Virus record (IMG/VR): IMGVR_UViG_3300014208_000024
Coordinates: 192,001-256,000 of that record
Strand: one strand, 5' to 3'
Length of the DNA: 64,000 nucleotides
Source: a virus
Taxonomy: Duplodnaviria; Caudoviricetes
Under the pieces are notes generated by a model, which was not told where the DNA came from, ran no database searches, and saw only the letters and a program-made list of their open reading frames with translations. Shown here in pieces: positions 3,229-53,736 of this stretch. Position 1 is the stretch's first letter. Every line of letters starts with the position of its first letter. The translations under genes were made by a program, and so were the position numbers.

Positions 3229-3910
3229 ATTAATTTTAGGAGATGGTCTTTTGGGGAGTCAAATTCACAAAATCACAAATTGGGATTTTATAAGTAGAAA
3301 AAAAAATAAAATTGATTTTAATAACATTCATTCATATTATGATTATTTAAATAACTATGAAGAAATAATTAACTGCATTGCAAATACAAACACATATTCT
3401 ACAGACAAAGATTTAATGTGGAAAACAAATGTGGTCGGGCTTTCTGATTTGGTTGACACATGTTCAATTTGTAAAAAAAAGATTATTCATATTTCATCAG
3501 ACTATATTTATTCCAATTCAATAGAGAATGCATCAGAAGAAGATGTTCCAGTGCATTGCGCAAACTGGTATGGATACACAAAACTCATAGGAGATGCATA
3601 TGTTCAACTAAAAGCTGGTGAATATTTACTAATAAGAACTACACAAAAGAAAAAACCATTTACTCATGAATGTGCATTTATAAATCAAATTGGTAACTTT
3701 GATTATGTTGACAAAATAGCTCCAATAATAGTTGATTTAATTGAAAAAAATGCCACAGGAGTATTTAATGTTGGAACCGAATTAAAAACTATGATGGATT
3801 TAGCAAAACAAACTAAAAATGATGTTAAACCAGGAACTTATTTGTTTGATCCAACAATGCCTACAAATGTTTCTATGAATATTAATAAATTAAAAAATTT
3901 TTTAAAATAA
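3218..3910 (+). CDS. RmlD-like NDP-4-keto-sugar reductase (extended SDR)
   Basis: LILGDGLLGSQI nucleotide-binding loop, IIHISSDYIY, catalytic YGYTK (YxxxK), GVFNVG. Confidence 0.75.
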   Translation: MKSRLILGDGLLGSQIHKITNWDFISRKKNKIDFNNIHSYYDYLNNYEEIINCIANTNTYSTDKDLMWKTNVVGLSDLVDTCSICKKKIIHISSDYIYSNSIENASEEDVPVHCANWYGYTKLIGDAYVQLKAGEYLLIRTTQKKKPFTHECAFINQIGNFDYVDKIAPIIVDLIEKNATGVFNVGTELKTMMDLAKQTKNDVKPGTYLFDPTMPTNVSMNINKLKNFLK

Positions 3911-3916
3911 AATAAT

Positions 3917-4537
3917 ATGTACAACAGCCAGCACCTACAAGATAAATATATGAATGAAAATATCTTTAAAAATAAAAGAAATGGTGTTTTTTTAGATATT
4001 GGAGCCAATGATGGAATTGCTATAAACAATACTTTGTTTTTTGAAAAAGAACTTGGATGGACTGGGATATGTATAGAACCCTATCCTTCTATTTTTGAAA
4101 AACTAAAAAATAATAGAAGTTGCATTTGTATCAATGGTTGTATTGCTAAAGAAACGAAAAAAGATATTTTTTTAGAGGTTTCAGGATATCCAGCAATGCT
4201 TAGCGGATTAAAGTCGGAATATTGTGAAAAGCATTTACAAAGAATAGATTATGAAATAGGATTGTTTGGGGGATCTAAAAAAGAAATAGAAGTTCAATGC
4301 TACAACATAAACGAAGTCTTAACACAACATAATATGTTTAATATTGATTTTTGCAGCTTAGATATAGAAGGTGGAGAGTTTAATGTTCTTCAAACAATAG
4401 ATTTTGATAAAATAAACATACATGCTTTCAGTATAGAAAACGCATATAGTGAATCAAAATTTAAAAAATTTATGAAAACAAAAGGATATAAACTAATTGA
4501 TGTATTAGAGTGTGATGATATATATGTTAAACAATAA
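3917..4537 (+). CDS. FkbM-family methyltransferase
   Basis: FLDIGANDG...SNT-like NNTLFFEKELGWTGICIEP and IDFCSLDIEGGEFNVL motifs. Confidence 0.85.
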   Translation: MYNSQHLQDKYMNENIFKNKRNGVFLDIGANDGIAINNTLFFEKELGWTGICIEPYPSIFEKLKNNRSCICINGCIAKETKKDIFLEVSGYPAMLSGLKSEYCEKHLQRIDYEIGLFGGSKKEIEVQCYNINEVLTQHNMFNIDFCSLDIEGGEFNVLQTIDFDKINIHAFSIENAYSESKFKKFMKTKGYKLIDVLECDDIYVKQ

Positions 4538-7160: not shown

Positions 7161-7954
7161 AGCAAATTATAAATTCTTACACATATCCAGATTGGCCAAA
7201 CATAGAGGTTGATTATAAAAAAAAAATTAGATATTTTGTTGATGGGTTCCATGGATATAATCCATCTGAAGATAGCTTTAAAGTCCTACATATAAAAGAG
7301 GCAGAAGCTATATGTAAATTAAGAGAAGAAGTTATAAAAAATCAAGAAAAATTTGATGTCATAATAACTTTTGATGAAGAAATTTTAAAAAATTGCAAAA
7401 ACTCTTATTTTTTCCCATTTGGAACAACTTGGGTCCACAAATACTCATTTATAGAAAAAAGATTTCAAATTTCAAACATCACTGGACATAAAGAAATAAC
7501 AGAAGGCCATATTTTAAGAAAAAAAATACACTATAAACAAACAAAAATTTCTAATCCAACCGATTTTTACATAAGTAAACATTTAGGTGTAGAAAATTTT
7601 AATAATAACAAAATTCTTGGAGATTTAAAAGAGCCTTTATTTGATTCTCAATTTCACATTTGTATAGAAAACTCAAAACAAAAAAACTATTTTACTGAAA
7701 AAATAATGGATTGTTTTGTAACCAAAACAGTTCCTATATATTGGGGATGTCCAAATATAAAAGATTTTTTTGACACAAGCTCAATCATCATAGTCAATGA
7801 TTTTAAGGAAATTATTGATGTTTGTAACAGTTTGACTTCTGAAAGTTATAAAAAAATGCTTCCTGGAATAGAAAAAAATTTGATTTTATCAAAAAATTAT
7901 ATAGATTTAGTTAGAAATATCAAGAAATTATTAATAGAAAAAATTTTATTATGA
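7157..7954 (+). CDS. Glycosyltransferase family 10-like (alpha-1,3-fucosyltransferase motif)
   Basis: FHICIENSKQKNYFTEKIMDCFVTKTVPIYWG matches the GT10 alpha-1,3 motif (F.l..EN....YvTEK.......vPiy.G). Confidence 0.8.
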   Translation: MKQIINSYTYPDWPNIEVDYKKKIRYFVDGFHGYNPSEDSFKVLHIKEAEAICKLREEVIKNQEKFDVIITFDEEILKNCKNSYFFPFGTTWVHKYSFIEKRFQISNITGHKEITEGHILRKKIHYKQTKISNPTDFYISKHLGVENFNNNKILGDLKEPLFDSQFHICIENSKQKNYFTEKIMDCFVTKTVPIYWGCPNIKDFFDTSSIIIVNDFKEIIDVCNSLTSESYKKMLPGIEKNLILSKNYIDLVRNIKKLLIEKILL

Positions 7955-8874
7955 AAGCAATAGTAACAGGAGCAAATGGTCTTTTGGGATCAGCATTGAA
8001 AAAACAACTTGGAGAAGATCATATTTATCACACAAGACAACAGTGTGACCTACTAAGAATAAACGAAATAAATCAATATTTTTACCATATAAACGAAACA
8101 GAGCATCCAGACACACTCATACACTGTGCCGCAAAGGTTGGTGGGGTGCAAGCCAATATAAATGATAATAGTGGATTCTTTTTACAAAATCTTTTTATAA
8201 ACAACAATGTAATCGGGACTGCAATTGTTTATGAATACAAAAACGTTGTAAACATATTGTCAACCTGTGTATTTCCTGACAAAGAAGTGATATATCCATT
8301 AACGGCAAACCAAATAGACAATGGAAAACCACATCCATCTAATCACGGCTATTCTTATGCAAAAAGACTTTTGTATTATTCAACAAAATACGCAAGAGAA
8401 ATAACTGGAAATAATTGGATTTCTATTATACCGACCAACATCTATGGTGAACAAGATAATTTTAATTTAGAAAACGGACACTTAATGCCAGCTTTAATTA
8501 ATAAAGCACACACAGCATCAAAATTAAATCAAGATTTTGTTGTTTGGGGAGATGGAACACCATTAAGACAATTTATATATTCAGAAGATTTGGCAAAAAT
8601 AATTTTATGGGCCATTGATAATTGGAAATCTGGAACCCCAATGATGGCTGTAAATGAAAAAGAATATTCAATTAAAGACATTGTTAACATTATAGCAGAC
8701 AGATTTAAAATTTCACAAGAAAGAATTAAATTTGACATTACAAAACCAAATGGACAATTTAGAAAACCAGCAAAACCTGATGTTCCTGCAGATTTTAAAT
8801 TTACACCGTTGGATGAAGGAATAAATAAAACAATTGATTGGTATTTAAAAAACATAAACAATGCTAGAAAATAA
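7951..8874 (+). CDS. fcl: GDP-4-keto-deoxymannose epimerase/reductase (GDP-fucose synthase Fcl/ColC family)
   Basis: VTGANGLLG, IHCAAKVGGV.AN, ILSTCVFP, GYSYAKR, PTNIYGEQDNF...HLMPALI, WGDGTPLRQFIYSEDLA, KPNGQFRK. Confidence 0.9.
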   Translation: MKAIVTGANGLLGSALKKQLGEDHIYHTRQQCDLLRINEINQYFYHINETEHPDTLIHCAAKVGGVQANINDNSGFFLQNLFINNNVIGTAIVYEYKNVVNILSTCVFPDKEVIYPLTANQIDNGKPHPSNHGYSYAKRLLYYSTKYAREITGNNWISIIPTNIYGEQDNFNLENGHLMPALINKAHTASKLNQDFVVWGDGTPLRQFIYSEDLAKIILWAIDNWKSGTPMMAVNEKEYSIKDIVNIIADRFKISQERIKFDITKPNGQFRKPAKPDVPADFKFTPLDEGINKTIDWYLKNINNARK

Positions 8875-11144: not shown

Positions 11145-11176
11145 TTTGCATTATTGAATTTTTTTTTATATATTTG
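11145..11176 (+). promoter_or_regulatory. Bacteroidota-type sigma70 promoter, full consensus
   Basis: TTTG (11145-48), exactly 20 nt, then TATATTTG (11169-76), 21 nt before ATG 11198. Confidence 0.7.
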
Positions 11177-11197
11177 CAAAAAAACAAAACAAAGACT

Positions 11198-12769
11198 ATG
11201 AAATTCAAAAACCTAAAACAGACAGATATTGATTATGCACGTAGAATCTACAAAGATAAATCAATGACTTTTCAACAGAGAATGAATATTTTAACAGATT
11301 ATTTCGAAAAAGATGAACGAACAATTCGCAGATGGTTTTCAAAAAAATTAGAAGGTTTTAAAGAAAAAGAAGATATAGTTGTAGAAAGCGAACATTTTAA
11401 ATTAGCAAAATTAGCACAAATTGATAAAGGGAGAAAATATTATTTAATTTCATCTGCTCAAAACAACACCCTTCCAAATGCAGAATTTATAAAAAACATA
11501 GAGGCATATAGTAATTTTTTAAAAGGACAATTAATTCTCGTTCCATATAGATACAAAAATCCAACATCAATATTTTCAAAAGCAGATAAAGAAAGTGAGT
11601 TTTGGCATCCGAGTCTTGTTAAATATTTGAACGCAAACAGAATAGATTTAAATTCAAAGTTAACTGTTCTTGGAGACATTAAAATTCAGCCTACAAATTC
11701 TGATCCATTGCGAGGAATTCAAGGTATAAGCTCTAAAAAAAGTTGTATTTTGGCACATCCATCAATACATTTTAAAACTATGCATGTTTTAGAAGGATAT
11801 GATAAAAAATTCATGATGACAACTGGCTCTGTAACAAAAGAAAACTATACTGACACTCTATTAGGAAAAAAAGGATCATTTAATCACACATATTCGTTTG
11901 TAATTGTAGAAATTGTTAATGAAGATAAATTTTATTGTAGACAAGTTACGGCAAATTCATCTGGATCTTTTACAGACCTTCATTTTAAAGTTTCTAATGG
12001 AGAAGTGAAAAAAATAAATAGTTGTGGTGCTGTTGTGTTTGGAGACATTCATTCGGGTGACCACAACAAAAAAGTTGTAGACTGTGGTATGGAATTGTGT
12101 AAAAAAATAAACCCCGAACACATTGTTCTTCACGATTTGTTTAATGCTAAATCCATAAATCATCACGAATTTAACAATCCTTTTATTCAATATGAATTGG
12201 AAAAAGAAAATAAAAATTCTTTGAAAAAAGAAATAGACGAGATGCTAAATTGGCTTGAACAATTAAATAAATTTAATGTTGTTGTTGTAAAAAGCAATCA
12301 TGATGATTTTGTATCAACATGGTTAATGCAAGATTGGCGCAAAATGAGCACCTGTAAAAATTCAATAGAATATGTAAAATTTGCATCAATATTATTAGAA
12401 GGAAAAGCAAAAAACGGAATTATTCCTTACTTAATAAATGAAAAATTTCCTAAAATCAAATGTTTAACGGCAAATGATAGTTTTATTGTTAATTCTTGGG
12501 AGCTTGCGCAACACAGTTCTGTTGGAAGTTCGGGAACAAGAGGGTCTTTAAATTCTTATAGTTCTTTAAGTATAAAATGTGTATTGGGACACGGGCATAC
12601 GGCCACTAGAAAAATGGGTACTATAATGGTTGGAACATTTACCAATTTACGTGTTGGATATAATAATGGCCCTAGCAACTGGGTAAACTCTTTAGTAATC
12701 ATTCACAATGACAAAAAAGCACAATTAATTATAATGGACGAGGATGGAAAATTTACTACTTTGAAATAA
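11198..12769 (+). CDS. Calcineurin-like metallophosphoesterase with N-terminal HTH-like region
   Basis: VVFGDIHSGD, IVLHDLFN, VVKSNHDDF and VLGHGHT motifs; N-terminal ERTIRRW helix. ATG at 11198 is used because the track's TTG start lies inside the promoter. Confidence 0.65.
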   Translation: MKFKNLKQTDIDYARRIYKDKSMTFQQRMNILTDYFEKDERTIRRWFSKKLEGFKEKEDIVVESEHFKLAKLAQIDKGRKYYLISSAQNNTLPNAEFIKNIEAYSNFLKGQLILVPYRYKNPTSIFSKADKESEFWHPSLVKYLNANRIDLNSKLTVLGDIKIQPTNSDPLRGIQGISSKKSCILAHPSIHFKTMHVLEGYDKKFMMTTGSVTKENYTDTLLGKKGSFNHTYSFVIVEIVNEDKFYCRQVTANSSGSFTDLHFKVSNGEVKKINSCGAVVFGDIHSGDHNKKVVDCGMELCKKINPEHIVLHDLFNAKSINHHEFNNPFIQYELEKENKNSLKKEIDEMLNWLEQLNKFNVVVVKSNHDDFVSTWLMQDWRKMSTCKNSIEYVKFASILLEGKAKNGIIPYLINEKFPKIKCLTANDSFIVNSWELAQHSSVGSSGTRGSLNSYSSLSIKCVLGHGHTATRKMGTIMVGTFTNLRVGYNNGPSNWVNSLVIIHNDKKAQLIIMDEDGKFTTLK

Positions 12770-13838
12770 TATTAGCCTTTAACAACATTTCTTCTATATT
12801 TTCATTATATTTTATAACTACAAGTAAAATTTTGTTGTTTTTACAATATTCCATTTTTATTTTATCTCTTTTTTGCTGAGATTTAAACATTTTTTCTCCA
12901 CCAAACCATTCAATGGGTTCATAGTGTTGTATTCCATGAAATTCTATGCAAATTTTTTTGTCTAACAAATAAAAATCAAAAGGAAGTGTATATTTATCAT
13001 AACAATCGATAAATCTTTTTTGCTGTTTAAAACAAATACCAAATTTAAGCAACATGAATTTAATTTGTGTTTCTCCAGTAGGTTCTTTACAAATTGGACA
13101 CCCTTTTCTTCGAAGGTGATTGTTTGGAGTCTGTAAAAATAAACCATGTTTATTACAAACTATACTTACTTTAATGTTGTCCCCTTTGTATTCTACAAAA
13201 TCATAATTATATTTATTGCCATGAATTTTTTCAAATTGCTTTATTAAAAAATCTGTTTTATTAACAGCATTGTGTTTAGTACATTTTACATGATAATTAT
13301 AAGGTAATATAAGGTGTTCTGTGTTATAATCTTTATTTATAATAGTTATTTTTGTATTGGCATTAATATAATTTATTTTTGAATAATCATATTTATCTCC
13401 ATGAATATTTTTAAATCTTTTAATTATATCATTATTTGAGTAATTAAAGTGTCTTCCATTACATTTTGGACATCCACTACCAAACATGTGACTTCCTGGC
13501 GTTTGTTTAAAATCTCCATGAAGTTTACATGTAATGATTATTTTTGTTTTTTCATCTTTATAAGTTACTTTTGAATAATCATATTTTTCTCCGTGCTTTT
13601 TAACAAATCTTTTTATTAAAACATCTAATGGGATTTTAAATTTATCAAATGCACATTTTTTACATATGCATCCATTTATGTGATCATGCGCTATTTGTAA
13701 AAATTCTCCATGTGTTGGACACACTATTTTTACTTTTGTGTGATTATTTATATATTCAACTAAACCATAATCATATTTATCTCCATGTACAAATTTAGCT
13801 TTTTCTACAAATTCTTGTGTTGTTAATTTTTTAGGCAT
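12756..13838 (-). CDS. Free-standing putative homing endonuclease: four HG(D/E/N)KY(D/N)Y repeats (DUF723-like) plus C-terminal PD-(D/E)XK/DUF559-like nuclease
   Basis: Repeats HGDKYDY..V.Y....K..I.C..HG.F.Q....H..G..C..C, of which repeat 3 lacks the Cys/His ligands; C-terminal LPFDFYL...KICIEFHGIQHY...RDKIK.EYC..NKI.L..IKY. ATG at 13838. Confidence 0.7.
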   Translation of the reverse strand: MPKKLTTQEFVEKAKFVHGDKYDYGLVEYINNHTKVKIVCPTHGEFLQIAHDHINGCICKKCAFDKFKIPLDVLIKRFVKKHGEKYDYSKVTYKDEKTKIIITCKLHGDFKQTPGSHMFGSGCPKCNGRHFNYSNNDIIKRFKNIHGDKYDYSKINYINANTKITIINKDYNTEHLILPYNYHVKCTKHNAVNKTDFLIKQFEKIHGNKYNYDFVEYKGDNIKVSIVCNKHGLFLQTPNNHLRRKGCPICKEPTGETQIKFMLLKFGICFKQQKRFIDCYDKYTLPFDFYLLDKKICIEFHGIQHYEPIEWFGGEKMFKSQQKRDKIKMEYCKNNKILLVVIKYNENIEEMLLKANIISK

Positions 13839-13839
13839 A

Positions 13840-13995
13840 TCATTTATTTTTAACCTGATTAAAATGTTCAATTAACAACCATTCAATAAACTTAGACTTA
13901 TTTTTTATTTCCTCTAAATGAATATATAATTCATTAGGTATTCTTACAGCAATTGTCTGTTTCTGCTTTTCTAAATTTATTTTTCTTCTTCCCAT
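13840..13995 (-). CDS. Small ribbon-helix-helix (RHH/CopG-like) DNA-binding protein, 51 aa, absent from the ORF track
   Basis: Hand translation MGRRKINLEKQKQTIAVRIPNELYIHLEEIKNKSKFIEWLLIEHFNQVKNK*: strand TIAVRIP, helix, then NKSKFIEWLL. Its TGA is 1 nt before the endonuclease ATG. Confidence 0.7.
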   Translation of the reverse strand: MGRRKINLEKQKQTIAVRIPNELYIHLEEIKNKSKFIEWLLIEHFNQVKNK

Positions 13996-14061
13996 AATAA
14001 ATAATTTTTAGTGTTTATTATAAATAGAAGAAAAAAATAAAAACAGAACAGGTCGTGTAAA

Positions 14062-14196
14062 TTATTTTTTGTTTTTTTCTATATATTCTTTTAACAATCG
14101 TATTATCAACTTACTACGATTATAATCGCCATCATCTAATTTTTTTATAATTTCTGGAGGAAGCGTTATGCTTAATTTTATTGATTTGTCTTTCAT
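14062..14196 (-). CDS. Small ribbon-helix-helix protein, 44 aa, absent from the ORF track
   Basis: Hand translation MKDKSIKLSITLPPEIIKKLDDGDYNRSKLIIRLLKEYIEKNKK* fits the RHH consensus (sitLp.el...Ld......rSkli..ll..y). Confidence 0.75.
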   Translation of the reverse strand: MKDKSIKLSITLPPEIIKKLDDGDYNRSKLIIRLLKEYIEKNKK

Positions 14197-14314
14197 AGTT
14201 TTTCTTTTTTTTAAATATAATCAAAAAAATTATAAATACAAAAAATTTTTTTTTAAAAAAAACCTTTACTATTGTAGAGGCTTTTTTTATATTATGTGCA
14301 TAAAATAAAAAAAA

Positions 14315-16570: not shown

Positions 16571-17758
16571 ATGGAAAAAGAAGTTATTGATAACACACAG
16601 ATTGATCACAACACATTAGTTCAATCTGTAATTGAAAAAGTAAGAAATAATGAATCAAAATATTATTTCTATTGTCCTGCATTAAATTCTCCCAGTGGCG
16701 GAATTAGTGTTTTGATAAAATTGGCAAAAATATTAAAAGACGGGGGATATAATTCTAAAATCGTTTTTGAACCAAGACAAGATCAAAAGGCATCTTATGA
16801 AGAATCAAGAAAACAAAATAAACAAGTTGTAATATTTGAAAAATTTAACCCAACATGGTTAGATTTTGATTATTCAGATGTTGAATTTATTCCACTTGGA
16901 GATAAAGATATTGTTTATAATGATGGAACAAAACAGGCGTGTTTACCTTTGAATGTTAATCCTGAAGATTTTTTTATAATTCCAGAAGGGTTTCCAAATG
17001 TAATGAAAAAAACTGCACAAGTAGCTTGTAAAAAAATTGTTTTAGCACAAAGTTGGTTTTATGTTCTTAATGCCTTAAATACTGGAGAAACATGGCAAGG
17101 AATGGGTGTTTTTGATGTAATTTCAGTATCAGATGCAATTACAGAATATTTAAATACAGTTATGCCTGGTTTAAGAATTAAAAACTTTTCACAAGGAATC
17201 AATAGAAAGATTTTCCGTGTTCCTGGAAAAAAATCCTCTAAATATCCAATGATTGGATTTACTGGAAACAGAGGTCAAGAAAATCAAATGAAAACATTTA
17301 ACATTATAAAAACATTTCAAGCTTTTTATCCACACTTAAGGTGGGTTAGGTTTATTCAATTAAGTGGATTGTCCAAAAAAGAATTTGCAGAAAGATTACA
17401 AAGTTGCGCATTTGTTTTGTATACAGATGATGTTGCTGGATTTGGAACCCTCCCTCTTGAATCAATGGCATCTGGAACTCATGTTGTAGGATGGAATTCA
17501 TATGGTGGAAAAGAGTATGTAACACAAGATAATGGATTTTGGACTGTTAATGGAGATATTTTCCAGACAGCAGAAATTCTAGGTGTTGCCGTTGATAAAT
17601 GGTTAAATGGAGAATTAGATGTCAACGAAATTCAAGAGTCTTATGAAAAAACTCTCGAAAGATATACAGAAGATGGAGAAAAAGAAGGCTTTTTAAATAT
17701 TATTAACGAATATAAAAATGAAAGAATCAATGAACTTGAAGGACTTAAAAAACAGTAA
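16571..17758 (+). CDS. GT-B fold glycosyltransferase (GT4-like)
   Basis: YFYCPALNSPSGGISVLIKLA.IL, FFIIPEGF and the C-terminal donor-binding motif FGTLPLESMASGTHVVG. Confidence 0.75.
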   Translation: MEKEVIDNTQIDHNTLVQSVIEKVRNNESKYYFYCPALNSPSGGISVLIKLAKILKDGGYNSKIVFEPRQDQKASYEESRKQNKQVVIFEKFNPTWLDFDYSDVEFIPLGDKDIVYNDGTKQACLPLNVNPEDFFIIPEGFPNVMKKTAQVACKKIVLAQSWFYVLNALNTGETWQGMGVFDVISVSDAITEYLNTVMPGLRIKNFSQGINRKIFRVPGKKSSKYPMIGFTGNRGQENQMKTFNIIKTFQAFYPHLRWVRFIQLSGLSKKEFAERLQSCAFVLYTDDVAGFGTLPLESMASGTHVVGWNSYGGKEYVTQDNGFWTVNGDIFQTAEILGVAVDKWLNGELDVNEIQESYEKTLERYTEDGEKEGFLNIINEYKNERINELEGLKKQ

Positions 17759-18671
17759 CATACTTGTCTCTATATTTATAGACGACTTAAGTAATTTAAT
17801 CACATTAGAAGAAACTCTTTATAGTGTTTCTAAACAAAGTCATAATGTGGATTTATTAGTGTTGCACTCAGAAGATTTTTCTGAAGAACAACTTAATTTA
17901 TTAAAAAATGCACTTAACAATCCTAAACTTATTTTAAGAAAGAAAAATCAACAAGGGTTGTTAGAGGAACAAATATTAGAAACTGATGGAAGAGTAAATT
18001 ATTTTCTAAAATCATCTAGTATTAATAATTTTCCAAAAATTTTTAATGAAACATTTAATATTGCTTTAGAAAATGAATATGAATTCTTTTCTGCAATAGA
18101 ACCAAACGATGTTGTTGGGTTAAACTGGTTTTTGCAAGCAAACTTATATGCAATTGAAAATGAAAATATTTCAATTTTTTTCCCAATCATTAGAAATACA
18201 GTAAATGGAATTTTCAATGGTCTACTTAATGAAGCTCCTTGGGCTGAGGGACTCTCAGAAGAAGCTGGAAAAGTAGATATTAATCTTTTAAACCGCTTTA
18301 ATTGTATGGTTCCTATTGGTACAATGTTTAGAGTAAGTGGGATTAAAGAATATAGCGAACAAAAAGAAGATGGAAAATATTACCCATTCAAAGAAAGTAT
18401 AAAAATTAGTCATTATTATGAGTTTTTAATGAGAATGGTATATAATGATGTAAAAGCAATGTGTGTTCCAAGAATTGGATATGAATTTAAAGCAAAAAAC
18501 AGTGACGTTTTCAAACACATATATTGTAAAATTCCAGGTAATATTTCACAAATTCCAATAGAAAAAGGAGGAATAACTCCAGCTGAAGGAAAGTTTTGGA
18601 TGGATTTAGCTAAAAAAGAATATTTCTTTGATGAAGATAGAAATAAAGTCTATGAAGAAGAAAAACAGTAA
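17718..18671 (+). CDS. GT-A fold glycosyltransferase-like protein (GT2-like, divergent)
   Basis: LEETLYSVSKQ, FNIALENEYEFFSAIEPNDVV, FLMRMVYNDVKAMCVPRIGY pattern; follows the GT-B gene. Confidence 0.55.
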   Translation: MKESMNLKDLKNSNILVSIFIDDLSNLITLEETLYSVSKQSHNVDLLVLHSEDFSEEQLNLLKNALNNPKLILRKKNQQGLLEEQILETDGRVNYFLKSSSINNFPKIFNETFNIALENEYEFFSAIEPNDVVGLNWFLQANLYAIENENISIFFPIIRNTVNGIFNGLLNEAPWAEGLSEEAGKVDINLLNRFNCMVPIGTMFRVSGIKEYSEQKEDGKYYPFKESIKISHYYEFLMRMVYNDVKAMCVPRIGYEFKAKNSDVFKHIYCKIPGNISQIPIEKGGITPAEGKFWMDLAKKEYFFDEDRNKVYEEEKQ

Positions 18672-19668
18672 AAAGAATAAAAAACAAAGTTTTGATAAAC
18701 AAAATGAAAATGGAGTTTTGTTTTCTTTAAGTGAAGAGTGTGATGGAAGGTTAAAAATTGAAGACACTCTAAGCCCAGAGGATTCAGCTTTATTAAATGA
18801 AGAAATTGAAGATGAACTTTCTGAAGTAATCACTGAAGTCAAAGAATTAGCTCTTGATGAAAAAAGTATTAAAACCTATTGGACAGATGATACTGAAACT
18901 GGAATTATTGATTTTCTTTATTTAAACGAGTTCTTTTACGAAAATAGAATAAAAGAAGAACACGAAGAAGCAGAAAAAGAAAAAAGAGTTGTAAATAAAT
19001 TTTATTGCAATGAAATGCAAAGAAGAAAAGATGAAGTTTTACAAATTGTAGATCGTGCAGAACAAAGAGAGAAAATTTTTAGAAATAAAATAGAAACTCC
19101 GCTAAAAAAGCTGGTAGAGAATATTCTTTTTAACTACAGACTTTTTCTTCCAGACACAGACGCAAGAACACAACAAAAGGACTGTTTCACTTTTTTATAT
19201 CTTAAATTTTCAAATTTTAATCCATGGAGAAAAACAAAATCATTTTCTTATTTTGGAACCATAGCAAAACATTATTTTCTTGGAAACAAAAAAGAATATT
19301 CAAAAAGTGTAAAAATTCTTTATGATTATGATTCTAATAAAGAAGAAGCCGACAATAAAAAAATAGAAGATCCAAAACCATATGTAAAAGAAGATGTATC
19401 GTTAGACCTATTTAATTTTATTATTAATTCAATAGAAACAGAGTTAAATAAAAGTTCGTTGTCAAAAAATGATCAAAAAGTTGGTGATGCTATTATACAA
19501 ATATTTAAAAATCATGAAATATTAGGAGTTTACAATAAAAATCAAGTTTATCAACTGATCAAAGAAAATACTGGACTAGAAACAAAAGATATAACTTATT
19601 CCTTGCATAGATTTAGAATAGTCTATAAAGTTTTAAAACAAGATTTTGTGCAAAAAAGAGAAGATTGA
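18652..19668 (+). CDS. Phage sigma-factor-like protein (late-transcription sigma, gp55-like region 2)
   Basis: PLKKLVENILFNY, FNPWRKTKSFSYFGTIAKHYFL (compare gp55-type ..AFsYFt.Ia.n.f) and a C-terminal HTH-like NKNQVYQLIKENTGLETKDITYSL. The track start 18628 is also possible. Confidence 0.55.
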   Translation: MKKKNSKKNKKQSFDKQNENGVLFSLSEECDGRLKIEDTLSPEDSALLNEEIEDELSEVITEVKELALDEKSIKTYWTDDTETGIIDFLYLNEFFYENRIKEEHEEAEKEKRVVNKFYCNEMQRRKDEVLQIVDRAEQREKIFRNKIETPLKKLVENILFNYRLFLPDTDARTQQKDCFTFLYLKFSNFNPWRKTKSFSYFGTIAKHYFLGNKKEYSKSVKILYDYDSNKEEADNKKIEDPKPYVKEDVSLDLFNFIINSIETELNKSSLSKNDQKVGDAIIQIFKNHEILGVYNKNQVYQLIKENTGLETKDITYSLHRFRIVYKVLKQDFVQKRED

Positions 19669-22117: not shown

Positions 22118-23446
22118 ATGGGCGGAGCAAGTGGTTTAGATATTTTATCGCAAAGCGGTTTACAACAATCTGGAATAGGAGATTACAGTGGTTCTTTAGC
22201 AAATAATAGAACTGTTTGGCCTGCTATTGTTGTTCCATTTGGAACCAATGATAATTCTGAACAGAACAGAATAAGAGTTAGAATAGTAAAACTAGATGAA
22301 AATGGAAATATTGTAGGAAAGATGTCAAGTAATGATGAAAATTATAATAATTACGCAGGAAAAGATCAAAATATACCAGACAACAAATTAGTTATATGTG
22401 TACCTCTTCTTCCAGAATTTTTTCACGTAAGGCCACAAGTGGGAGAAATGGTTTTTGTTATAATGGAAAATTCCAAAGAAAATTCAGGAACAAGATATTG
22501 GATAGGTCCAATTATTACATCAAAATTAAAATTAAATGGGCAACTTTATGAAGAATCTGTAAAAATATTTAACGAAACTACATTTATATCTAATAGAAAA
22601 ATAGAAAGTTCTCAAGAATTAATGTCCATATTTCCACAAGATTCTGATGTTGCGATACAAGGAAGAAATGATGCAGATTTAATATTAAAAAACAGAGAAA
22701 CATTACTTATTGCTGGAAAATTGAACAGAGAAAACTTTATTATAAATACAGAAACCCCATCGTATTTAAGATTAAAACAAGTTGATCAAATAAATAAAAC
22801 AGAAATAAAAGAAAGTCCAAAAAAAATAACACATAACATTAATACGTTTTTAGAAATAGACACAAATGGAAGATTTGTGGGGACAATAGTTATAACAGAA
22901 TTAAAAACAAACTTTCAATTAAAAAACGATAAAAACTCTTATTCAGTAAGAAAAATGACAATTGATTGGTTAGATTCAGAAATTAAAGCAGCAAAAGAAA
23001 AATATAAAACATGGAGCTTTACAACAACCATTCAAGAATATAAAAACTTACCAGCTAATTATAACATAAAAGCAACTCCAACTGCTACAACACCTCCTTC
23101 TACGACAAACAATCAAGATTTGCTAACAAAATTTTCTCAAGCAACTTTAGTGTCAACAAGCATCAACATGTATTCTCCAAGAGGAAAATTTAGGGGAAAT
23201 GATTTAAAACCTTTTGAAAAAAACAAAGATTTAAAATCTTTTGGCGATTTTTCAGATTCACTTCATCCATCTATTTTTGGAGATGAGGCAGTTAGATTGT
23301 TTGACCTAATAATTAGGCTGTTGTTAACGCACTCACATCACCCACAAAAACCTTTGTTGCAAACTTCAATATCCGATGAGTTAAAAAAATACACAGTAGA
23401 TGGTTGGTTACAAAATCTTTTATCTAATCACGTAAGGATTAATTAA
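22118..23446 (+). CDS. Baseplate hub/central spike protein (gp5/VgrG-like N-terminal OB fold)
   Basis: WPAIVV...NRIRVRI...CVPLLPEFFHVRPQVGEMVFVIM...RYWIGP, then DVAIQGRNDADLIL; C-terminal LLTHSH. Located just upstream of the gp25/gp6-like genes. Confidence 0.6.
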   Translation: MGGASGLDILSQSGLQQSGIGDYSGSLANNRTVWPAIVVPFGTNDNSEQNRIRVRIVKLDENGNIVGKMSSNDENYNNYAGKDQNIPDNKLVICVPLLPEFFHVRPQVGEMVFVIMENSKENSGTRYWIGPIITSKLKLNGQLYEESVKIFNETTFISNRKIESSQELMSIFPQDSDVAIQGRNDADLILKNRETLLIAGKLNRENFIINTETPSYLRLKQVDQINKTEIKESPKKITHNINTFLEIDTNGRFVGTIVITELKTNFQLKNDKNSYSVRKMTIDWLDSEIKAAKEKYKTWSFTTTIQEYKNLPANYNIKATPTATTPPSTTNNQDLLTKFSQATLVSTSINMYSPRGKFRGNDLKPFEKNKDLKSFGDFSDSLHPSIFGDEAVRLFDLIIRLLLTHSHHPQKPLLQTSISDELKKYTVDGWLQNLLSNHVRIN

Positions 23447-24858
23447 AAAGGTTTTACCACACGCAAATCTATTCTTTCTGGCATTACTCTTTGGGTTCCA
23501 GCTTCGCTTATTTTAAAGCTTATTTGATAGGTTTGGTTATGTAGTAACCAGGAAGCATCTAAATCAAAATAATTGGTTTTACAGTCATCTAATACAGCTT
23601 GGTTGACCTCTGTCCATGGAACAACTTCTTCTTGATTGTTCATAATTATTCTGTATTGTAAAGAATAAGACGTAGACGGTTTACTTGTGCTAAAATTAAC
23701 TCTTAAGTCACAATATATTCTTAATTTTTCATCTTGATGAACAATCATTCCTTGTTCTACCCCATATGTTTCTATTACATAATCATTAATTGAAGGTTTG
23801 GTAGCTGTAAAATAATTCTTTTGTATTTGAAAAGATTGTTCTATATTTTGATTATCATAAATACTAAAGCTTACATTTTTCCAGGTGTCAGTATATTTTT
23901 CTCCAGCTGTTGCTCCAGACATCCAAACATTAATGTAATATATTCCAGTAGAAAGTTGGTTTGGAATCAAATCAGAATAAATAACTGTATTCCCCTTTTT
24001 TATATCAACTGTTACAGCTGTTAAATTAACATTTGCAAAGTTATGCCCACTAAAAGCATAAAAAAATAGATTTGATGGCCTATTGTTTGAAACTTGCTTT
24101 CTATCGTCTTGAATTACTTGATTATAATTAACCTCCAAAAATGGTTTAAATGCTGAATTTGTTTTTTCTGTAAAAAACGAACAAATATATCTTGTGTCAG
24201 TACTTAATATTTCATAATCTCTTCTAAATGCGATTCCTAGACCGTAGTTTTGGGAACCGCCACTCAACCAATTTTTAACTATATCTGTTATGTCTACATC
24301 TATATCTTCGTTTCCTATGTCAAAATGTTGTGTAGTATAAAACGCTGTGGATGCAGTTGGGTTTTCATATACCCCTGGTTCATTCCAACTTACAGTAGAA
24401 GTTGCACTATTCCAATTAGAAACACCAGAAACTTGATAATTTCCAAACTGTCTTGCTACGTAAATTTCTTTTGTTAAATCATATCCTCTTCCTTCTTCCC
24501 AATATTTATTTATTGGGAAAAAAATTAAATCAAAAGAAGTTGCCACTTTTTTGAATAATACATCATATTCATATTCATCTTCAAGAGCCAAATCGCTTGG
24601 CTTTGAATTTTTTAGCTTTAATTTATATGAAGACACTAAAGATTCATTAATTTCTTTACTACTAAATTTTTGTTGTAAATCAGATAAATCAAAATTAAGT
24701 AAAAATCTGCTAATTGAATTTCTTTTACTTGGAGCAGTGTCAGTTCCTCCGCCACCATACCATAGGTCTGTTACAGAATTTTGTCCTGAATTTATACTGC
24801 TATATACTCCAGAAGCAATCGTATTGCTTTTTGATGGGTAGATTCTAAAAATTGACAT
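23443..24858 (-). CDS. Structural protein with DNRLRE-like beta-sandwich domain
   Basis: SRFLLNFDLSDL, W.EG.GYD, SNWNSAT..VSW..PG, DVDITDIVKNWLSG..NYGLGI and F.TE.TN.AFKPFLEV pattern. Confidence 0.5.
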   Translation of the reverse strand: MSIFRIYPSKSNTIASGVYSSINSGQNSVTDLWYGGGGTDTAPSKRNSISRFLLNFDLSDLQQKFSSKEINESLVSSYKLKLKNSKPSDLALEDEYEYDVLFKKVATSFDLIFFPINKYWEEGRGYDLTKEIYVARQFGNYQVSGVSNWNSATSTVSWNEPGVYENPTASTAFYTTQHFDIGNEDIDVDITDIVKNWLSGGSQNYGLGIAFRRDYEILSTDTRYICSFFTEKTNSAFKPFLEVNYNQVIQDDRKQVSNNRPSNLFFYAFSGHNFANVNLTAVTVDIKKGNTVIYSDLIPNQLSTGIYYINVWMSGATAGEKYTDTWKNVSFSIYDNQNIEQSFQIQKNYFTATKPSINDYVIETYGVEQGMIVHQDEKLRIYCDLRVNFSTSKPSTSYSLQYRIIMNNQEEVVPWTEVNQAVLDDCKTNYFDLDASWLLHNQTYQISFKISEAGTQRVMPERIDLRVVKPF

Positions 24859-27311: not shown

Positions 27312-30300
27312 ATGCAAGAAGAAATTTTAATAAATAGAAGCAGAACTGGTACGACAATTTATTTTTTTAACACAGACATCAATGAATATAATTATTCTGT
27401 TTCAACTGATCCTGCTGTTTTAAAATTTGGTACAACAGAAAGTGTTCCAATAGAGCTTGGGGTTTTTGATGGTGTTTTTTTATCTGCAAATCCAACTACT
27501 GTTTTGTGGAAAAGAAATACACAACAAAATAACATATTCAGTCCTGAAATAAGAATGGATTTTATATTAGACACACCTTATTCTCCACCTTCTGCCGATG
27601 ATTTACTAACAAGAAGTTCTTATACAACTTTTTCAACAAACAATCACGTTTCTTTTGCATTAGATCATATTACAGGAAGAACTTTTTCTCAAGTCAATAA
27701 TACAAAATTATCACAATCACAAAAAGATTCTATTACAAATAGATTTTTACAATCTATGAATTCTTTGTTTACTGCAGGAACAACTTCTTATGTGTTCTTT
27801 GAAGATATGCCAATTGATGATTTTTATGCAAACATTAAATTAGAAAGAAGTTTTGATGTTCTTAACACTTTAAATATTTACAACAAAGTAAGCGGAGAAT
27901 ATTCTTTAAGAGAATCTGCAACTGGAGTAGTTTTTGGTAAACTTGAGGCTGTTCAAAAATTAACCGACTCTGATGGTAATAAAATTAGAATTCCATTAAG
28001 AAATGTTCCAATTGGAATATTTAATTCATCAAATGATTTTGAAACCCCAAACTCATTAGATGCAGATGGAAATAGATTGAGATTAAACTTTAGACCTTTA
28101 GATTCAAGCGAAGATAATTATCCACGTGATCATTTAAATGAATATTTTAATATAGAAACTTCTACATTTGATAATAAATTTTTAAATGGAATTCCATTGG
28201 ATGGTTTAAATATTCATCCAACTTTCAAAAATGTTGTTTATACAAATGAAAATGGAGAATTTTTCCTACATGATATAAGCGTTGGTGCACAAATATTGTT
28301 TTTTGAAGTTGACTTATTAAAACAAGGTTTAACAAAAGATGAAGTTGCTTTGAATTATTTTCCTTATCCACCTTCTTTTGAAAACTTTTCTATTGACACT
28401 ATTCCTCATTATTTTTATAGAGCATTACCAATCGAAGTTGTTCCTTCGTGGGGAGAATTTGGACAAACTGGATATACACAAATAAATGTTTCGGTAAATT
28501 TAGATCTAAGAAAATGGTCAACATATATAATCCCGCCCGTTACATATAAGGGTTTTCCAATAGACTCTGCAGGATATCAAGATTATTCAAGGGCTCCTCT
28601 TATTGTACAGGTTAGAGATATGTCAAAATTTAACCAAAAAGTGGCTAGTGCACAAACCCCTGAAGAAAGATTAGAGACTTATCCTTCGAGACAAATTCAA
28701 ATGGTTGAAATATTAGATATAATTGACAGAAGTGTTGAGCAACAATGGGATTTTGCAAATGAATTTTCTCAAATAAAAGATAAGGCTATTTTTCACACAT
28801 ACGGATATCATGCTATAAAACTTCCATCAAACATATATGATGATGCTGGATATAAAACTGACAAATTTGGAGATCCAATGTCTTCAAATACATCAACAAA
28901 AGGGGTTTGGTTGTGTGGATACCAACTTAAAATGTTTTTAACAAAAGAATCAGAATTGTATAGAACAACAAGCTTAGCACTCTCACATGATGCAAATGGT
29001 ACTTGGTATGACAGAGACCATTTCCACTGCTGTTTAAATGAAGAAATACAAAACTACTACTCTTCTTCATATGATGCATATGAAAAAAGAGGAAGTGGAA
29101 TCGGAATATTTCCATACGAAAAAGCCTGGGACAAAAATTACCCAGAAAGATATTCAATTCCTAAATGTCCAAAAGAAAAAACATATGTTGATTATTATCT
29201 AAATAATTACAGAGACAGAATAGAATGTCCAGAATTTCAAGATGGAGATTTAATTAAAGGAAATTCTATGATAAATCCTGGAATTAATGGCCAAAACTGG
29301 AATGGTTTTGGATTAAGTTGGAATGGTTGGATAGAACAGTATACAGATTTTTCAACAGATGTAATTGGAAGTGCTCCAACTTCTGGAATGTATAAATATG
29401 AACCAATTGGAATGGGTAAATATGGACAAAATCAATATTTTGGATGCTATGCTAGTGGATATTACAACGACATTGATTACATAATAGGGAAACACTCAGA
29501 AGTAAAAAATGCAGAAAACTATCAAAGATTAGAAGCTGGTTATGGATATTTTTTGTTTCCATCAAGCATGCCAAGAATTGTTCCAGTAATTACCGAATCA
29601 TCAATTAGGGTTGATGGATTTTTACCAACAGAAGTAGATTCTACACACAGAAAACATGTTCAAAATTATTGTCAAACAACCATTGATGAATACGTTGATA
29701 ATAGTACAACAGACCTTGGAATGTCTAAAAACTCTTTAAACTTAAAAGGAACTGCAAATCACATGATTTCTTTTAGTGTGTTAAACAACGGAAAAACTAT
29801 TGCAATGGATTTATCTAAAAAACTAGGAACATTTCCTTTAATAAATGATAAATTAAATATTTATAGAATTATTGACAGTAAATATACAGTTTCTCATGAT
29901 ACTTTACAACCAACTATTCCAACTTTTACTTCTTTTGTTTTTGAAGAATTTAGAGTTACTAAAGAAAAAATTTACAAATCAGTATTGATACCATTTGTTA
30001 AATATGATTACAACAGAGTTATTCCAGAAGAAGAGCCTTTGTTAACAGATTCTGGGTCAATTAATCTTGATGTAGCTACTATTGAAATTTATAACACAGG
30101 AGATATTCCGCTTGTTCTTTTAATTCAATCAGAGGGCCAAGGTACTGATTTGGAAATAACTATTGAAGTAGGATTTAAAATAATTTTATATACTGGAGAT
30201 GTTAATTTTATAGAAACAACAACAGATACACAAAAAATGATAGATGTAGTTATGAAAAAAATTAAAATATTAGCCAGTGGAAATAAAGATTATGACGAGG

Positions 30301-30851
30301 TAGATAATAGATATACAAACACATCTATAACTTTTAAATTTTCAGCCAGTTGGCCTGGAGAATATAATTGTTCTAAAGTAATAAGTATACCAATAAAAGA
30401 TAAAGCTAATGTTAATTGCGTATTTCCAGCAAGTAATACTAAATATGATATTGAAAGTCAATATTATGCAAACACAATATGGAGAGCTGTAGATGTTAAA
30501 ACATATAAAAACTGGGATTCAAATGGATGGTTGGAAAATACAAATAATAATAAAAAGAATTATGATGGATATAGACTTTATTCAAGTGGTGTTTTTGCAA
30601 ATCCTGGAAAATACAATGCAATGGGTGCCGATTCAAATGGAACTTCTTTTGCATATATAGATGACAGCTGTTCAGCTAACACTAACGATTATAGAACTGA
30701 AAGAATGAATGCAGGTGGAACAATGGAGTTATATTGGTCTAAAGGAGAAAGAAAAAATCCAAATGCAAGCTTTACTCCAAATCTTCAATTGTTAAGTGAT
30801 GCGAAATGGGATGTTAATGAATTATGGAAATTAACCGATCCTCAATATTAA
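27312..30851 (+). CDS. Large virion structural protein (beta-rich; carboxypeptidase-regulatory-like segment)
   Basis: 1179 aa, rich in Asn/Tyr/Thr; GVVFGKL...LRNVPIGIF...YTNENGEFFL.DI.VG.Q.LFFEVDL; follows the gp6-like gene. Confidence 0.55.
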   Translation: MQEEILINRSRTGTTIYFFNTDINEYNYSVSTDPAVLKFGTTESVPIELGVFDGVFLSANPTTVLWKRNTQQNNIFSPEIRMDFILDTPYSPPSADDLLTRSSYTTFSTNNHVSFALDHITGRTFSQVNNTKLSQSQKDSITNRFLQSMNSLFTAGTTSYVFFEDMPIDDFYANIKLERSFDVLNTLNIYNKVSGEYSLRESATGVVFGKLEAVQKLTDSDGNKIRIPLRNVPIGIFNSSNDFETPNSLDADGNRLRLNFRPLDSSEDNYPRDHLNEYFNIETSTFDNKFLNGIPLDGLNIHPTFKNVVYTNENGEFFLHDISVGAQILFFEVDLLKQGLTKDEVALNYFPYPPSFENFSIDTIPHYFYRALPIEVVPSWGEFGQTGYTQINVSVNLDLRKWSTYIIPPVTYKGFPIDSAGYQDYSRAPLIVQVRDMSKFNQKVASAQTPEERLETYPSRQIQMVEILDIIDRSVEQQWDFANEFSQIKDKAIFHTYGYHAIKLPSNIYDDAGYKTDKFGDPMSSNTSTKGVWLCGYQLKMFLTKESELYRTTSLALSHDANGTWYDRDHFHCCLNEEIQNYYSSSYDAYEKRGSGIGIFPYEKAWDKNYPERYSIPKCPKEKTYVDYYLNNYRDRIECPEFQDGDLIKGNSMINPGINGQNWNGFGLSWNGWIEQYTDFSTDVIGSAPTSGMYKYEPIGMGKYGQNQYFGCYASGYYNDIDYIIGKHSEVKNAENYQRLEAGYGYFLFPSSMPRIVPVITESSIRVDGFLPTEVDSTHRKHVQNYCQTTIDEYVDNSTTDLGMSKNSLNLKGTANHMISFSVLNNGKTIAMDLSKKLGTFPLINDKLNIYRIIDSKYTVSHDTLQPTIPTFTSFVFEEFRVTKEKIYKSVLIPFVKYDYNRVIPEEEPLLTDSGSINLDVATIEIYNTGDIPLVLLIQSEGQGTDLEITIEVGFKIILYTGDVNFIETTTDTQKMIDVVMKKIKILASGNKDYDEVDNRYTNTSITFKFSASWPGEYNCSKVISIPIKDKANVNCVFPASNTKYDIESQYYANTIWRAVDVKTYKNWDSNGWLENTNNNKKNYDGYRLYSSGVFANPGKYNAMGADSNGTSFAYIDDSCSANTNDYRTERMNAGGTMELYWSKGERKNPNASFTPNLQLLSDAKWDVNELWKLTDPQY

Positions 30852-30860
30852 TAAATTAAA

Positions 30861-32321
30861 ATGGATAATAGAAAAAAAATATTATTAGGCAATAAAGATA
30901 TTTTATCAAGGACTGTTAAAGACTTTTATATTGATGTAAATCTTTCTAAAGACAATAGAGAAATTTGGCAATATAAATATGATAATGTTTTTGACATTAC
31001 ATATTTTTACAACAAAGAGCGTAGGGAAAGTAGGGAATTTATTATATATGGAGCAATTGATTCTTATTTGTGTGATTGTAATGATTTAATAATAAAAGTT
31101 TATGACAATAGTCAATGCATTGGACAACCAATTGCAACCACAAATTCAAAAGAGTTGGTTAGTCAGTATATGCCTTTTAAAAATCTATACGGAAAAAGAA
31201 GAGGAAGATATATTGTTGACAACATTCCTTTAGGGTTTTCTGGATTTTCTATCTACATGAAAGTAGAATCTCAAAATAGTTCAATAAATGATATAATACA
31301 ACATAATGTTTACGAACAACAAATAATATTTACAACATTAACTTTTAGTAATTCTGGAGAAAAAATAGTTGAGAAATTAGATTATGGGTTAAACGAAGCT
31401 GTTACTGATTGTGACGGAAATGTTTTCGAAGTAAATAATGATTTTGATTTTTTTTATAACAAACATTGGATTAAAAAAAATTTAAACATTATTAACTCTA
31501 ATAAAATTTGGATTGGTGATGAAAGTACAAAATATTGTGCAACAGAAGTAAAAAAACTTTATCATGATAGAATAGTTGTAGGAATTTTTAACACTGGATA
31601 TTTTGAATTTGTAAAAACTATGGAAGTTTACGAAATAGATATGTCTCCTACTGGAAATATTGAATTTAACGACGCTTCAAATATTGAACATTATCAACCG
31701 CCAATATATAATGACGGAATGTGTCCAATTCCAAAAGAATTTTCATTAAAAATAGAGATTCTTTTTTCTCCAGCTGATGGAAACAATTTTTTTACTGCGC
31801 CAACAGACAACATATTACTTTCTGTTTCTCCCGACGATTTTATTTTTGATAGCAACCAACCTGTTAGAAAATACCTTGAAACTGAAACAGTTACAGTAAT
31901 AATAGAAAACAATAATCCTCTATGGGAGTTTAATGATTTTTATTTAAACTCACAGCCTCAAAATTTAAATTCCTCTTTAAGTGTAAAAATGTTACAAGAC
32001 ACCGTTGTTCAAATTTATTACAAAGAAGTTTGTTCTTGGAGTTTATCTATTAATAGTACATTTTTGGATTATAGTGGAAATGTGTCTATTTCACCTACTG
32101 GAGAAACAATTTCTTATAGTGTTATAAAAAATAAATATTACAACAACGAACCTATTACAATATCTCCAACAGATAATTATTATATAGAATCTTTCATTAT
32201 AAATGGAAATAATGGAACATTAACTAGTGTTGAAGATGTTGCCGACGGGACAACAAAAAACATAATATCTTTTAACATAACAAGCAATACTATATTATCT
32301 TTTATTTATAGAAAATATTAA
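30861..32321 (+). CDS. Putative structural protein with C-terminal Ig-like repeats
   Basis: 486 aa; two C-terminal beta-sandwich-like units ending V.IYYKE and LSFIYRKY. Confidence 0.5.
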   Translation: MDNRKKILLGNKDILSRTVKDFYIDVNLSKDNREIWQYKYDNVFDITYFYNKERRESREFIIYGAIDSYLCDCNDLIIKVYDNSQCIGQPIATTNSKELVSQYMPFKNLYGKRRGRYIVDNIPLGFSGFSIYMKVESQNSSINDIIQHNVYEQQIIFTTLTFSNSGEKIVEKLDYGLNEAVTDCDGNVFEVNNDFDFFYNKHWIKKNLNIINSNKIWIGDESTKYCATEVKKLYHDRIVVGIFNTGYFEFVKTMEVYEIDMSPTGNIEFNDASNIEHYQPPIYNDGMCPIPKEFSLKIEILFSPADGNNFFTAPTDNILLSVSPDDFIFDSNQPVRKYLETETVTVIIENNNPLWEFNDFYLNSQPQNLNSSLSVKMLQDTVVQIYYKEVCSWSLSINSTFLDYSGNVSISPTGETISYSVIKNKYYNNEPITISPTDNYYIESFIINGNNGTLTSVEDVADGTTKNIISFNITSNTILSFIYRKY

Positions 32322-53549: not shown

Positions 53550-53559
53550 GGTTGTTTTA

Positions 53560-53736
53560 TTAATTATTTAACATTTGCTCCATAGATTCTCTGACAAATT
53601 CAGATATTTTAATAATTTTACCTCGTTGAACACTTTGCTCAATTGTTTTTTTAACACATCTTTGATATAAATCATCACTTAATCTAAATGTTAATGTCCT
53701 AAACTCTATTGCTTTATTTTCATCTTCTTTTTTCAT
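53560..53736 (-). CDS. Small ribbon-helix-helix protein, 58 aa, absent from the ORF track
   Basis: Hand translation MKKEDENKAIEFRTLTFRLSDDLYQRCVKKTIEQSVQRGKIIKISEFVRESMEQMLNN*. Its stop lies 10 nt before the LAGLIDADG ATG. Confidence 0.7.
   Translation of the reverse strand: MKKEDENKAIEFRTLTFRLSDDLYQRCVKKTIEQSVQRGKIIKISEFVRESMEQMLNN

Follow-up and report, generated by a model that had tools for sequence, protein, structure and literature searches.

A homing endonuclease may harm the genome in which it resides, and how the free-standing ones are restrained is known for only a few T4 genes. In T4, a late promoter is set inside a hairpin that hides the ribosome binding site, and I-TevI is controlled both by autorepression and by a hairpin of this kind. 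CopG of plasmid pMV158 is a transcriptional repressor of 45 amino acids (aa) with the ribbon-helix-helix (RHH) fold, involved in plasmid copy number. Among nucleases, the prototype of the EDxHD family is I-Bth0305I (PDB 3R3P; Taylor et al. 2011), and this family includes free-standing phage genes (PMC3239194). In IS605 elements, Arc binds and represses the promoter of the element itself (Moon, Zedaveinyte, Wiegand, Sternberg; bioRxiv 10.64898/2026.09.24.754181). Meanwhile, moraphages display CcdA/HicB-like antitoxin genes beside PacI-like putative homing endonucleases, for which regulation or an offset of fitness was proposed (Arch Virol 2025, PMC12619734); this passing mention is the only published record of an RHH plus homing-nuclease module that we found. 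Here we describe an apparent homing cassette from a window of 64,000 nucleotides (nt), bases 192001-256000 of the IMG/VR virus record IMGVR_UViG_3300014208_000024 (372,283 bp, ~28% G+C, CheckV 100% complete).

The cassette consists of three genes: rhhB, rhhA, and a nuclease gene. On balance, we favor the view that positions 12770 to ~14240 of the window form a self-contained mobile homing cassette, equipped with RHH regulators and hairpin gating and built on a generic twin-RHH unit. The original prediction, made from the letters of the window, had described a cassette with one RHH gene at 12756-13995. Its rhhA and nuclease genes stand, while the second RHH gene, rhhB, had been missed, and the unit reaches ~14240. 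As claimed, an RHH open reading frame (ORF) of 51 aa is present, and its TGA is followed by a single T and then by the nuclease ATG at 13838. The features of the locus, in window coordinates, are the following:

12756..13838, minus strand: nuclease, predicted free-standing EDxHD (Vsr-fold) homing endonuclease, 360 aa (PHROG, Pfam, AlphaFold2 (AF2) model, structural matches)
12756..12769, both strands: tail-to-tail overlap of 14 nt with the A1-like gene; left edge of the insertion
13840..13995, minus strand: rhhA, 51 aa, predicted CopG/Arc-like RHH protein with a basic N-terminal arm, MGRRKIN (profile against PDB, AF2 model, non-synonymous to synonymous differences (pN/pS))
13987..14031, minus strand: putative leader hairpin, with the promoter box in its 5′ arm (14014-14031) and the rhhA AUG plus codons 2-3 in its 3′ arm (13987-14001)
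14012..14026, minus strand: PA box TATTTATAATAAACA, promoter-like for rhhA and the nuclease, containing TATAAT; the exact 15-mer is confined to cassettes
14062..14196, minus strand: rhhB, 44 aa, second, paralogous RHH gene (Pfam RHH_1, E-value 0.015; dN/dS 0.17)
14212..14238, minus strand: promoter-like region of rhhB, with a second TATTTATAAT (14229-14238) and, 15 nt ahead of the ATG, a TATATTTA box (14212-14219)
14263..14290, both strands: putative two-way terminator hairpin of the A1-like gene (terminator scan); right flank

Comparison with relatives that carry or lack the cassette provided insights into its mobility. The gene on which it borders (11174..12769, plus strand, 531 aa) had been taken for a phosphoesterase; instead, it matches PHROG 1745, the T5 A1-type 'DNA transfer protein' (E-value 4.5e-126). 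In the contig that holds the ortholog (L076 and L007, which are one and the same contig), the cassette lies at the identical place and has the identical 14-nt overlap with the A1-like gene. Contig L079 displayed the same neighbors, namely the genes of GDP-mannose dehydratase, the A1-like protein, and proteins of 254, 325, and 395 aa, with no cassette. The flanks of L076 and L079 are 77-85% identical on both sides, their homology ends exactly at the A1 stop codon, and directly after this codon 1669 bp of L076 (6061-7729, encompassing the nuclease, rhhA, rhhB, and the boxes) replace 9 bp of L079. Further empty sites were found in L081/L088, L055, and L082. Presence of the cassette does not alter the length of the A1 C-terminus. 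The final four codons of the nuclease, together with its stop, are the antisense of the 3′ end of the A1-like gene, in agreement with the antisense overlap (12756-12769) with a convergent gene that had been noticed before.

The terminator tells where the other edge lies. The empty sites of L079 and L081 have a homologous hairpin ~20-25 nt after the A1 stop, which appears to be a two-way terminator. In the window, this hairpin (14263-14290) is found beyond rhhB, displaced by ~1.5 kb, with a folding free energy (dG) of -13 kcal/mol and z-scores of -2.9 and -3.1 on the two strands. The displaced hairpin and the empty-site comparison therefore indicate that the insertion spans ~12770-14240, between the A1-like stop codon and the A1-like terminator, and that both RHH genes are part of the mobile unit. 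This is a discrete insertion between conserved genes that is missing from syntenic relatives, as is the case for homing cassettes. Past the displaced terminator and ahead of the gene that follows, L076 also has an extra piece of 207 bp (7800-8006), which includes a 75-aa ORF and does not occur in L079.

The association between RHH genes and nucleases extends well beyond this site. The 372-kb genome encodes well over 20 homing-type nuclease genes and exactly four A-type and four B-type RHH genes, arranged as four rhhB-rhhA pairs, each of them directly upstream of a nuclease gene. As had been claimed, the cassette adds another example of RHH genes combined with a homing nuclease. The partners of the four pairs are an HNH/EndoVII-like gene at genome position 38372, a GIY-YIG-like gene at 59817 (a call made by motif only, since Pfam and PHROGs missed the gene), and two EDxHD genes, one at 128993 and that of the window. 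Other nuclease genes follow a lone and more distant RHH-like ORF, namely a LAGLIDADG gene (window 52665-53736), a GIY-YIG gene (genome 286650/285862), and an HNH-like gene (genome 17354/17541). At least nine nuclease genes of the genome have no RHH gene, including the EDxHD paralogs at 344863 and 255855.

Among the related IMG/VR loci, the order B, A, ORF was found in 43 out of 46. The 35 distinct ORFs downstream of RHH genes comprised ~13 EDxHD, ~17 HNH/EndoVII, 3 GIY-YIG/T5orf172, 1 LAGLIDADG, and 1 PD-ExK, so that nucleases of at least four families make up more than 90% of them; two non-nucleases were seen downstream of RHH genes, a 2H phosphoesterase and an ORF without a known function. 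On the RhhA tree, partner class requires 15 changes, and no fewer than four are necessary for HNH, as for EDxHD, even when only branches with good support are counted. The closest kin of the window RhhA beyond its ortholog precede GIY-YIG and HNH genes. These patterns suggest that the twin-RHH unit is generic and has been re-paired many times with unrelated nuclease families. In the opposite direction, about 10 of the 75 EDxHD loci from IMG/VR displayed any abutting RHH-like ORF upstream, and none of the 75 displayed the RHH pair. Because most EDxHD nucleases do without RHH genes, the pair appears to be an optional add-on to them. The original prediction had named conservation of the nuclease without its RHH partner as an observation that would speak against the cassette, and such nucleases occur, in the two paralogs of this genome and in ~65 of the 75 relatives. 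The dependence is one-way: the RHH pair always accompanies a nuclease, and the nuclease does not need the RHH genes.

Three loci displayed variations on this arrangement. In L008 (IMGVR_UViG_3300045970_000794, 362 kb; 3310-4306), the coupled partner of an RHH pair is a GIY-YIG nuclease, and the RhhA of this pair is 71% identical to that of the window, which looks like a recent partner swap. At genome positions 17354-18930, an RHH-like ORF of 61 aa is separated by 1 nt from the truncated HNH-like ORF downstream of it, and a second, intact HNH-like ORF follows. The truncated ORF begins with MGRKKLNL, resembling the N-terminus of RhhA, and the locus may be a decayed or fused cassette. In L051 (3348-4169), a weak RHH-like ORF lies directly before a 2H phosphoesterase with matches to Acb1 (anti-CBASS) and 2′-5′ RNA ligase.

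The two small genes are, judging by their substitution patterns, real genes under purifying selection. Between rhhA and its ortholog there are 18 synonymous and 3 non-synonymous differences (pS 0.755, pN 0.026), the dN/dS of rhhB against its ortholog is as listed above, and the alternative frames are full of stops. RhhA and RhhB are paralogous, with cross-hits between their hidden Markov models of 1e-5 to 1e-11 and the common motif N(K/E)SK(L/F)I..LL. The family profile had its top PDB match in CopG (1b01/2cpg), at a marginal E-value of 0.02. The AF2 model of RhhA (predicted local distance difference test score (pLDDT) of 81) places an extended segment at residues 11-20 and helices at 21-28 and 33-50, which is the RHH fold. 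This model was compared to 48,161 representative chains, and of the 50 matches listed, almost every one was an RHH protein, among them CopA-SO, PutA, omega, NikR, AmrZ, ParD, and Arc; the best Z of 4.5 is low, and is the most to be expected from a domain of 42 residues. Thus, both genes model as CopG/Arc-like folds with predicted DNA binding. At 44-51 aa, the proteins consist of the fold alone, with no room for a toxin-binding tail. A type II toxin-antitoxin pair was rejected, as there is no C-terminal toxin-binding region and the partners belong to at least four unrelated nuclease families. The RHH family had 330 database matches, all of 42-72 aa and all metagenomic, often on contigs of 200-540 kb, and a tblastn search of RhhA against 50,697 GenBank phage records returned no match.

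The nuclease is best described as a member of a known family, that of the EDxHD (I-Bth0305I/Vsr-fold) homing endonucleases, as its profiles and model indicate. It matched PHROG 559, 681, and 9084 (endonuclease/homing endonuclease; E-values 1e-76 to 1e-23) and the Pfam families DUF4379 and DUF723. The AF2 model (pLDDT 82) displayed four helix-plus-hairpin modules followed by a C-terminal alpha/beta domain (residues 253-359). This domain superimposes on I-Bth0305I (3r3p_A) with a Z of 10.3 and a root-mean-square deviation of 2.8 A over 89 of 97 residues, a Vsr-like fold, followed by Vsr itself (1cw0, Z 9.9; 1vsr, Z 9.4). Hence, the PD-(D/E)XK superfamily assigned earlier is appropriate and can be narrowed to the EDxHD/Vsr-like family. 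Residues E256, D288, H305, and D325 are invariant or nearly so across 14 relatives and fit the EDxHD motif by spacing, with 17 residues from D288 to H305 as from D196 to H213 of I-Bth0305I (PMC3239194). Searches of PDB sequences with the nuclease and with its profile gave no match, and Foldseek alone gave no significant match for the nuclease and RhhA models; the structural matches came from a second aligner only. The start at 13838 is backed by the N-terminus MPKK(L/F)TT, conserved in paralog L003 and ortholog L007, and a TTG at 13871 was rejected as a start in favor of this conserved ATG.

The N-terminal arm is an array of DUF723/DUF4379 treble-clef zinc modules. The window nuclease has four, corresponding to the four HGxKYxY units that had been reported (HGDKYDY, HGEKYDY, HGDKYDY, HGNKYNY). 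Units 1, 2, and 4 retain C..HG..H..GC..C, and the third has lost its ligands, as noticed before, reading IINKDYN...HVKCTKHN; this decayed module (residues 181-192) is the sole stretch of the nuclease with a pLDDT below 50. The ortholog in L007 has five intact modules, the window copy three intact and one decayed, and the paralogs three to six. Therefore, the DNA-binding arm appears to gain, lose, and degrade modules, consistent with the modular turnover that had been suggested.

The intergenic segments of the cassette carry recurrent boxes. The TATTTATA box reported upstream of the RHH gene is indeed found at 14019-14026, 23 nt before the rhhA ATG and as part of TATTTATAATAAACA; it is also a promoter-like motif that is used elsewhere in the genome. 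The 15-mer TATTTATAATAAACA has three exact copies in the genome, all of them between rhhB and rhhA, and a copy with one mismatch in the fourth cassette. Across contigs, the spacer between the two RHH genes is conserved as a T-rich run, (C/A)TATTTATAATAAACA, and then 10-25 nt up to the rhhA ATG. Its core, TATTTATAAT, has 33 copies in the genome, of which 21 fall within the intergenic 8%, mostly 8-45 nt upstream of a start codon, a distribution that is promoter-like. This core was rejected as an operator private to the cassette, since it precedes many other genes. We examined ten genes behind such boxes, and four are homing-type nucleases; a GIY-YIG gene and the cassettes are also behind them. 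The box rhhB itself has, TATATTTA(T), occurs 8-25 nt before rhhB in most related loci, with TTGAC(T/A)-N17 upstream of it in several contigs.

Box-fronted nuclease genes without RHH genes occur at genome positions 162062-163558, 155083-156138, 81978-83162, and 29970-30923 (L169, L171, L172, and L175; PHROG 3339/559/945). In the window, an antisense ORF of 471 aa (23443-24858, minus strand) amid plus-strand genes starts 11 nt after a TATTTATAAT box; neither PHROG nor Pfam gave a match for it.

The junction between rhhA and the nuclease is equally regular. Measured from the rhhA stop, the ATG of the nuclease falls between -23 and +10 nt in 32 of 34 distinct junctions, irrespective of which class of nuclease follows. 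This geometry fits coupled translation, which the original prediction had suggested from the spacing in the window.

Upstream of rhhA, most cassettes display base pairing between the box region and the start of this gene. In the window copy, 14014-14031 pairs with 13987-14001 and would bury the AUG (dG -7.3 kcal/mol, z -2.06), and the 26-nt rhhA leader that starts just past the box is unstructured. The mean folding z of 33 distinct related rhhA leaders was -1.64, against -0.12 for the rhhB leaders; these 33 leaders are kin, so that a t-test overstates the support. In nine leaders of the same register, a subset picked by eye, 96% of cells pair and two pairs change on both sides (one of them as UA, GC, and CG), a covariation score reached by none of 500 shuffles. 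No hairpin was found over the nuclease start (z +0.6). By analogy, a hairpin linking the promoter box to the rhhA start, and hence a T4-style gating of translation, is moderately supported.

Based on these findings, we propose how the cassette may work. The nuclease, whose homing we assume because of family precedent, presumably cuts cassette-free copies of the site during co-infection, and repair would then copy the cassette in. RhhA and RhhB are most likely DNA-binding regulators that hold down the promoters of the cassette; the precedent of the family and the analogy with CopG of plasmids and Arc of IS605 suggest as much. In this scheme, rhhB would be served by its own promoter-like box, the spacer would provide the second box, and rhhA would be coupled to the EDxHD nuclease. 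The RNA hairpin would add a second layer, with the promoter box as its 5′ arm and a 3′ arm that hides the rhhA start codon. Read-through transcripts would thus remain silent, and production of RhhA and, by coupling, of the nuclease would be restricted to transcripts that begin at the box. A broader proposal, which we put forward tentatively and regard as doubtful, is that the whole twin-RHH unit (two boxes, rhhB, start-hiding hairpin, rhhA, and a coupled slot) is a portable controller captured repeatedly by homing nucleases of at least five folds, and that its RHH proteins, through trans action on the common box, may link all nuclease cassettes of a phage genome into one silencing circuit.

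Several observations weigh against this interpretation, in addition to the kinship of the 33 leaders and the choice of the nine by eye. RNAalifold gave no single consensus hairpin on all 33 leaders. An operator specific to the cassette was sought and none was found, the conserved box serving other genes too, and the beta-strand residues of the RHH proteins show no visible co-variation with the box. A terminator-like hairpin with a T-run after rhhB is not significant in the window copy (z -0.46), being clearer in other contigs. Finally, most EDxHD nucleases, including two paralogs in this very genome, have no RHH gene at all. The inverted repeat over the box and the rhhA start could also be read as DNA, namely as a palindromic operator for RHH dimers in a purely transcriptional control. 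Each arm (TTTATAAN) is nearly palindromic itself, as suits a symmetric RHH dimer, the arm centers are ~21 bp apart on the same helix face, and RHH repressors usually bind over their own promoter. However, a symmetric dimer needs no complementarity at an asymmetric position, and yet such a position changes on both sides in the sequence of pairs given above; moreover, the pairing register of the window copy shifts to cover the AUG itself, and the core of the arm is an ordinary promoter box. We thus consider a DNA operator somewhat unlikely and retain the RNA hairpin.

Other explanations concern what the RHH proteins do. Invariably found with a nuclease, they form part of the mobile unit, and RHH accessory proteins of relaxosomes are established, so they might act as homing accessories near the target or insertion site, aiding cleavage or repair or shielding phage DNA, as TraY and NikA do with relaxases. 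Yet near-identical RHH pairs serve unrelated nuclease folds at different genomic sites, with presumably unrelated targets, and most relatives of the nuclease have no RHH gene, which makes such a role distinctly unlikely. It has been suggested (PMC12619734) that genes of this type are cargo useful to the phage, for example antitoxin mimics directed against toxin-antitoxin defenses of the host, which would offset the cost of a selfish nuclease; RhhA and RhhB do bear a weak Pfam resemblance to CcdA and CopG-type antitoxins. A DNA-binding fold of 44-51 aa without a toxin-binding tail fits this poorly, and both the close start/stop coupling and the promoter-hairpin layout common to the cassettes speak for a role in nuclease control rather than for an independent function, so that we hold the cargo explanation to be highly improbable. 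The order of a small RHH gene followed by a nuclease also resembles that of antitoxin-toxin operons, in which case RhhA and RhhB would inhibit the nuclease protein directly. This we can hardly credit, considering that the nucleases accompanying this one RHH family are of at least four unrelated structures and that the RHH proteins have no C-terminal extension for protein binding. Transcriptional repression by the RHH proteins combined with gating by the hairpin remains the interpretation that we prefer.

These findings have implications for the understanding of how homing nucleases are kept in check. The RHH unit looks like a common plug-in control in large uncultured phages, a module that can be studied apart from any single nuclease. 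Should trans action of the RHH proteins on the common box prove true, a single phage could co-regulate 20-plus nuclease genes. The sequences of the empty sites are ready substrates for cleavage, and two small proteins with two boxes make for a simple reporter test.

The surroundings of the cassette also deserve mention. It lies at the border of a divergent block formed by the A1-like gene (11174-12769), which is far more diverged than its neighbors. The A1-like gene has no DNA-level alignment with L079, although the flanking genes of GDP-mannose dehydratase and the 254-aa protein are ~80% identical to those of L079 in DNA, and the A1-like protein of the window shares only 45% identity with the L076 allele. 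Elsewhere in the window, a gene of 1019 aa (60777-63836, plus strand) includes an intein-like segment of LAGLIDADG type. Converging on the stop of this gene, an EDxHD paralog (63855-64000, minus strand) that has no RHH gene continues past the end of the window.

The cassette can now be set beside the described systems. It resembles I-Bth0305I in its C-terminal Vsr-like domain and in the spacing of its E/D/H/D residues. I-Bth0305I, however, is intron-encoded and has an arm of NUMOD2/helix-turn-helix type, whereas the window nuclease is free-standing, has a DUF723/DUF4379 zinc array, and is preceded by two RHH genes. CopG is the top PDB sequence match of the RHH profile and has the same minimal, fold-only size; the match is marginal, and CopG is a plasmid repressor without a link to nucleases. 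The moraphage genes are similar in that a small RHH-type gene occurs with multi-copy homing nucleases in large aquatic phages thought to infect Bacteroidota. Their description takes up one paragraph and covers one nuclease type, without twin RHH genes, promoter and hairpin, empty sites, or partner swapping (PMC12619734). In their genetic setting, the Arc proteins of IS605 are likewise encoded by a tiny RHH gene in a selfish element beside its nuclease; those elements are transposons with TnpA, the RNA-guided TnpB, and a single Arc, whereas the window holds a phage homing cassette, of a kind that combines protein-guided nucleases with two paralogous RHH proteins. The arrangement is reminiscent of the free-standing seg/mob genes of T4-like phages and of I-TevI: the cassette is autonomous and lodged between conserved genes, and it has a putative promoter of its own, a patchy spread, and a hairpin whose 5′ arm would be the promoter and whose 3′ arm holds the start codon. 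The T4 nucleases repress themselves or use RNA structure alone, while the cassette described here has separate small RHH genes.

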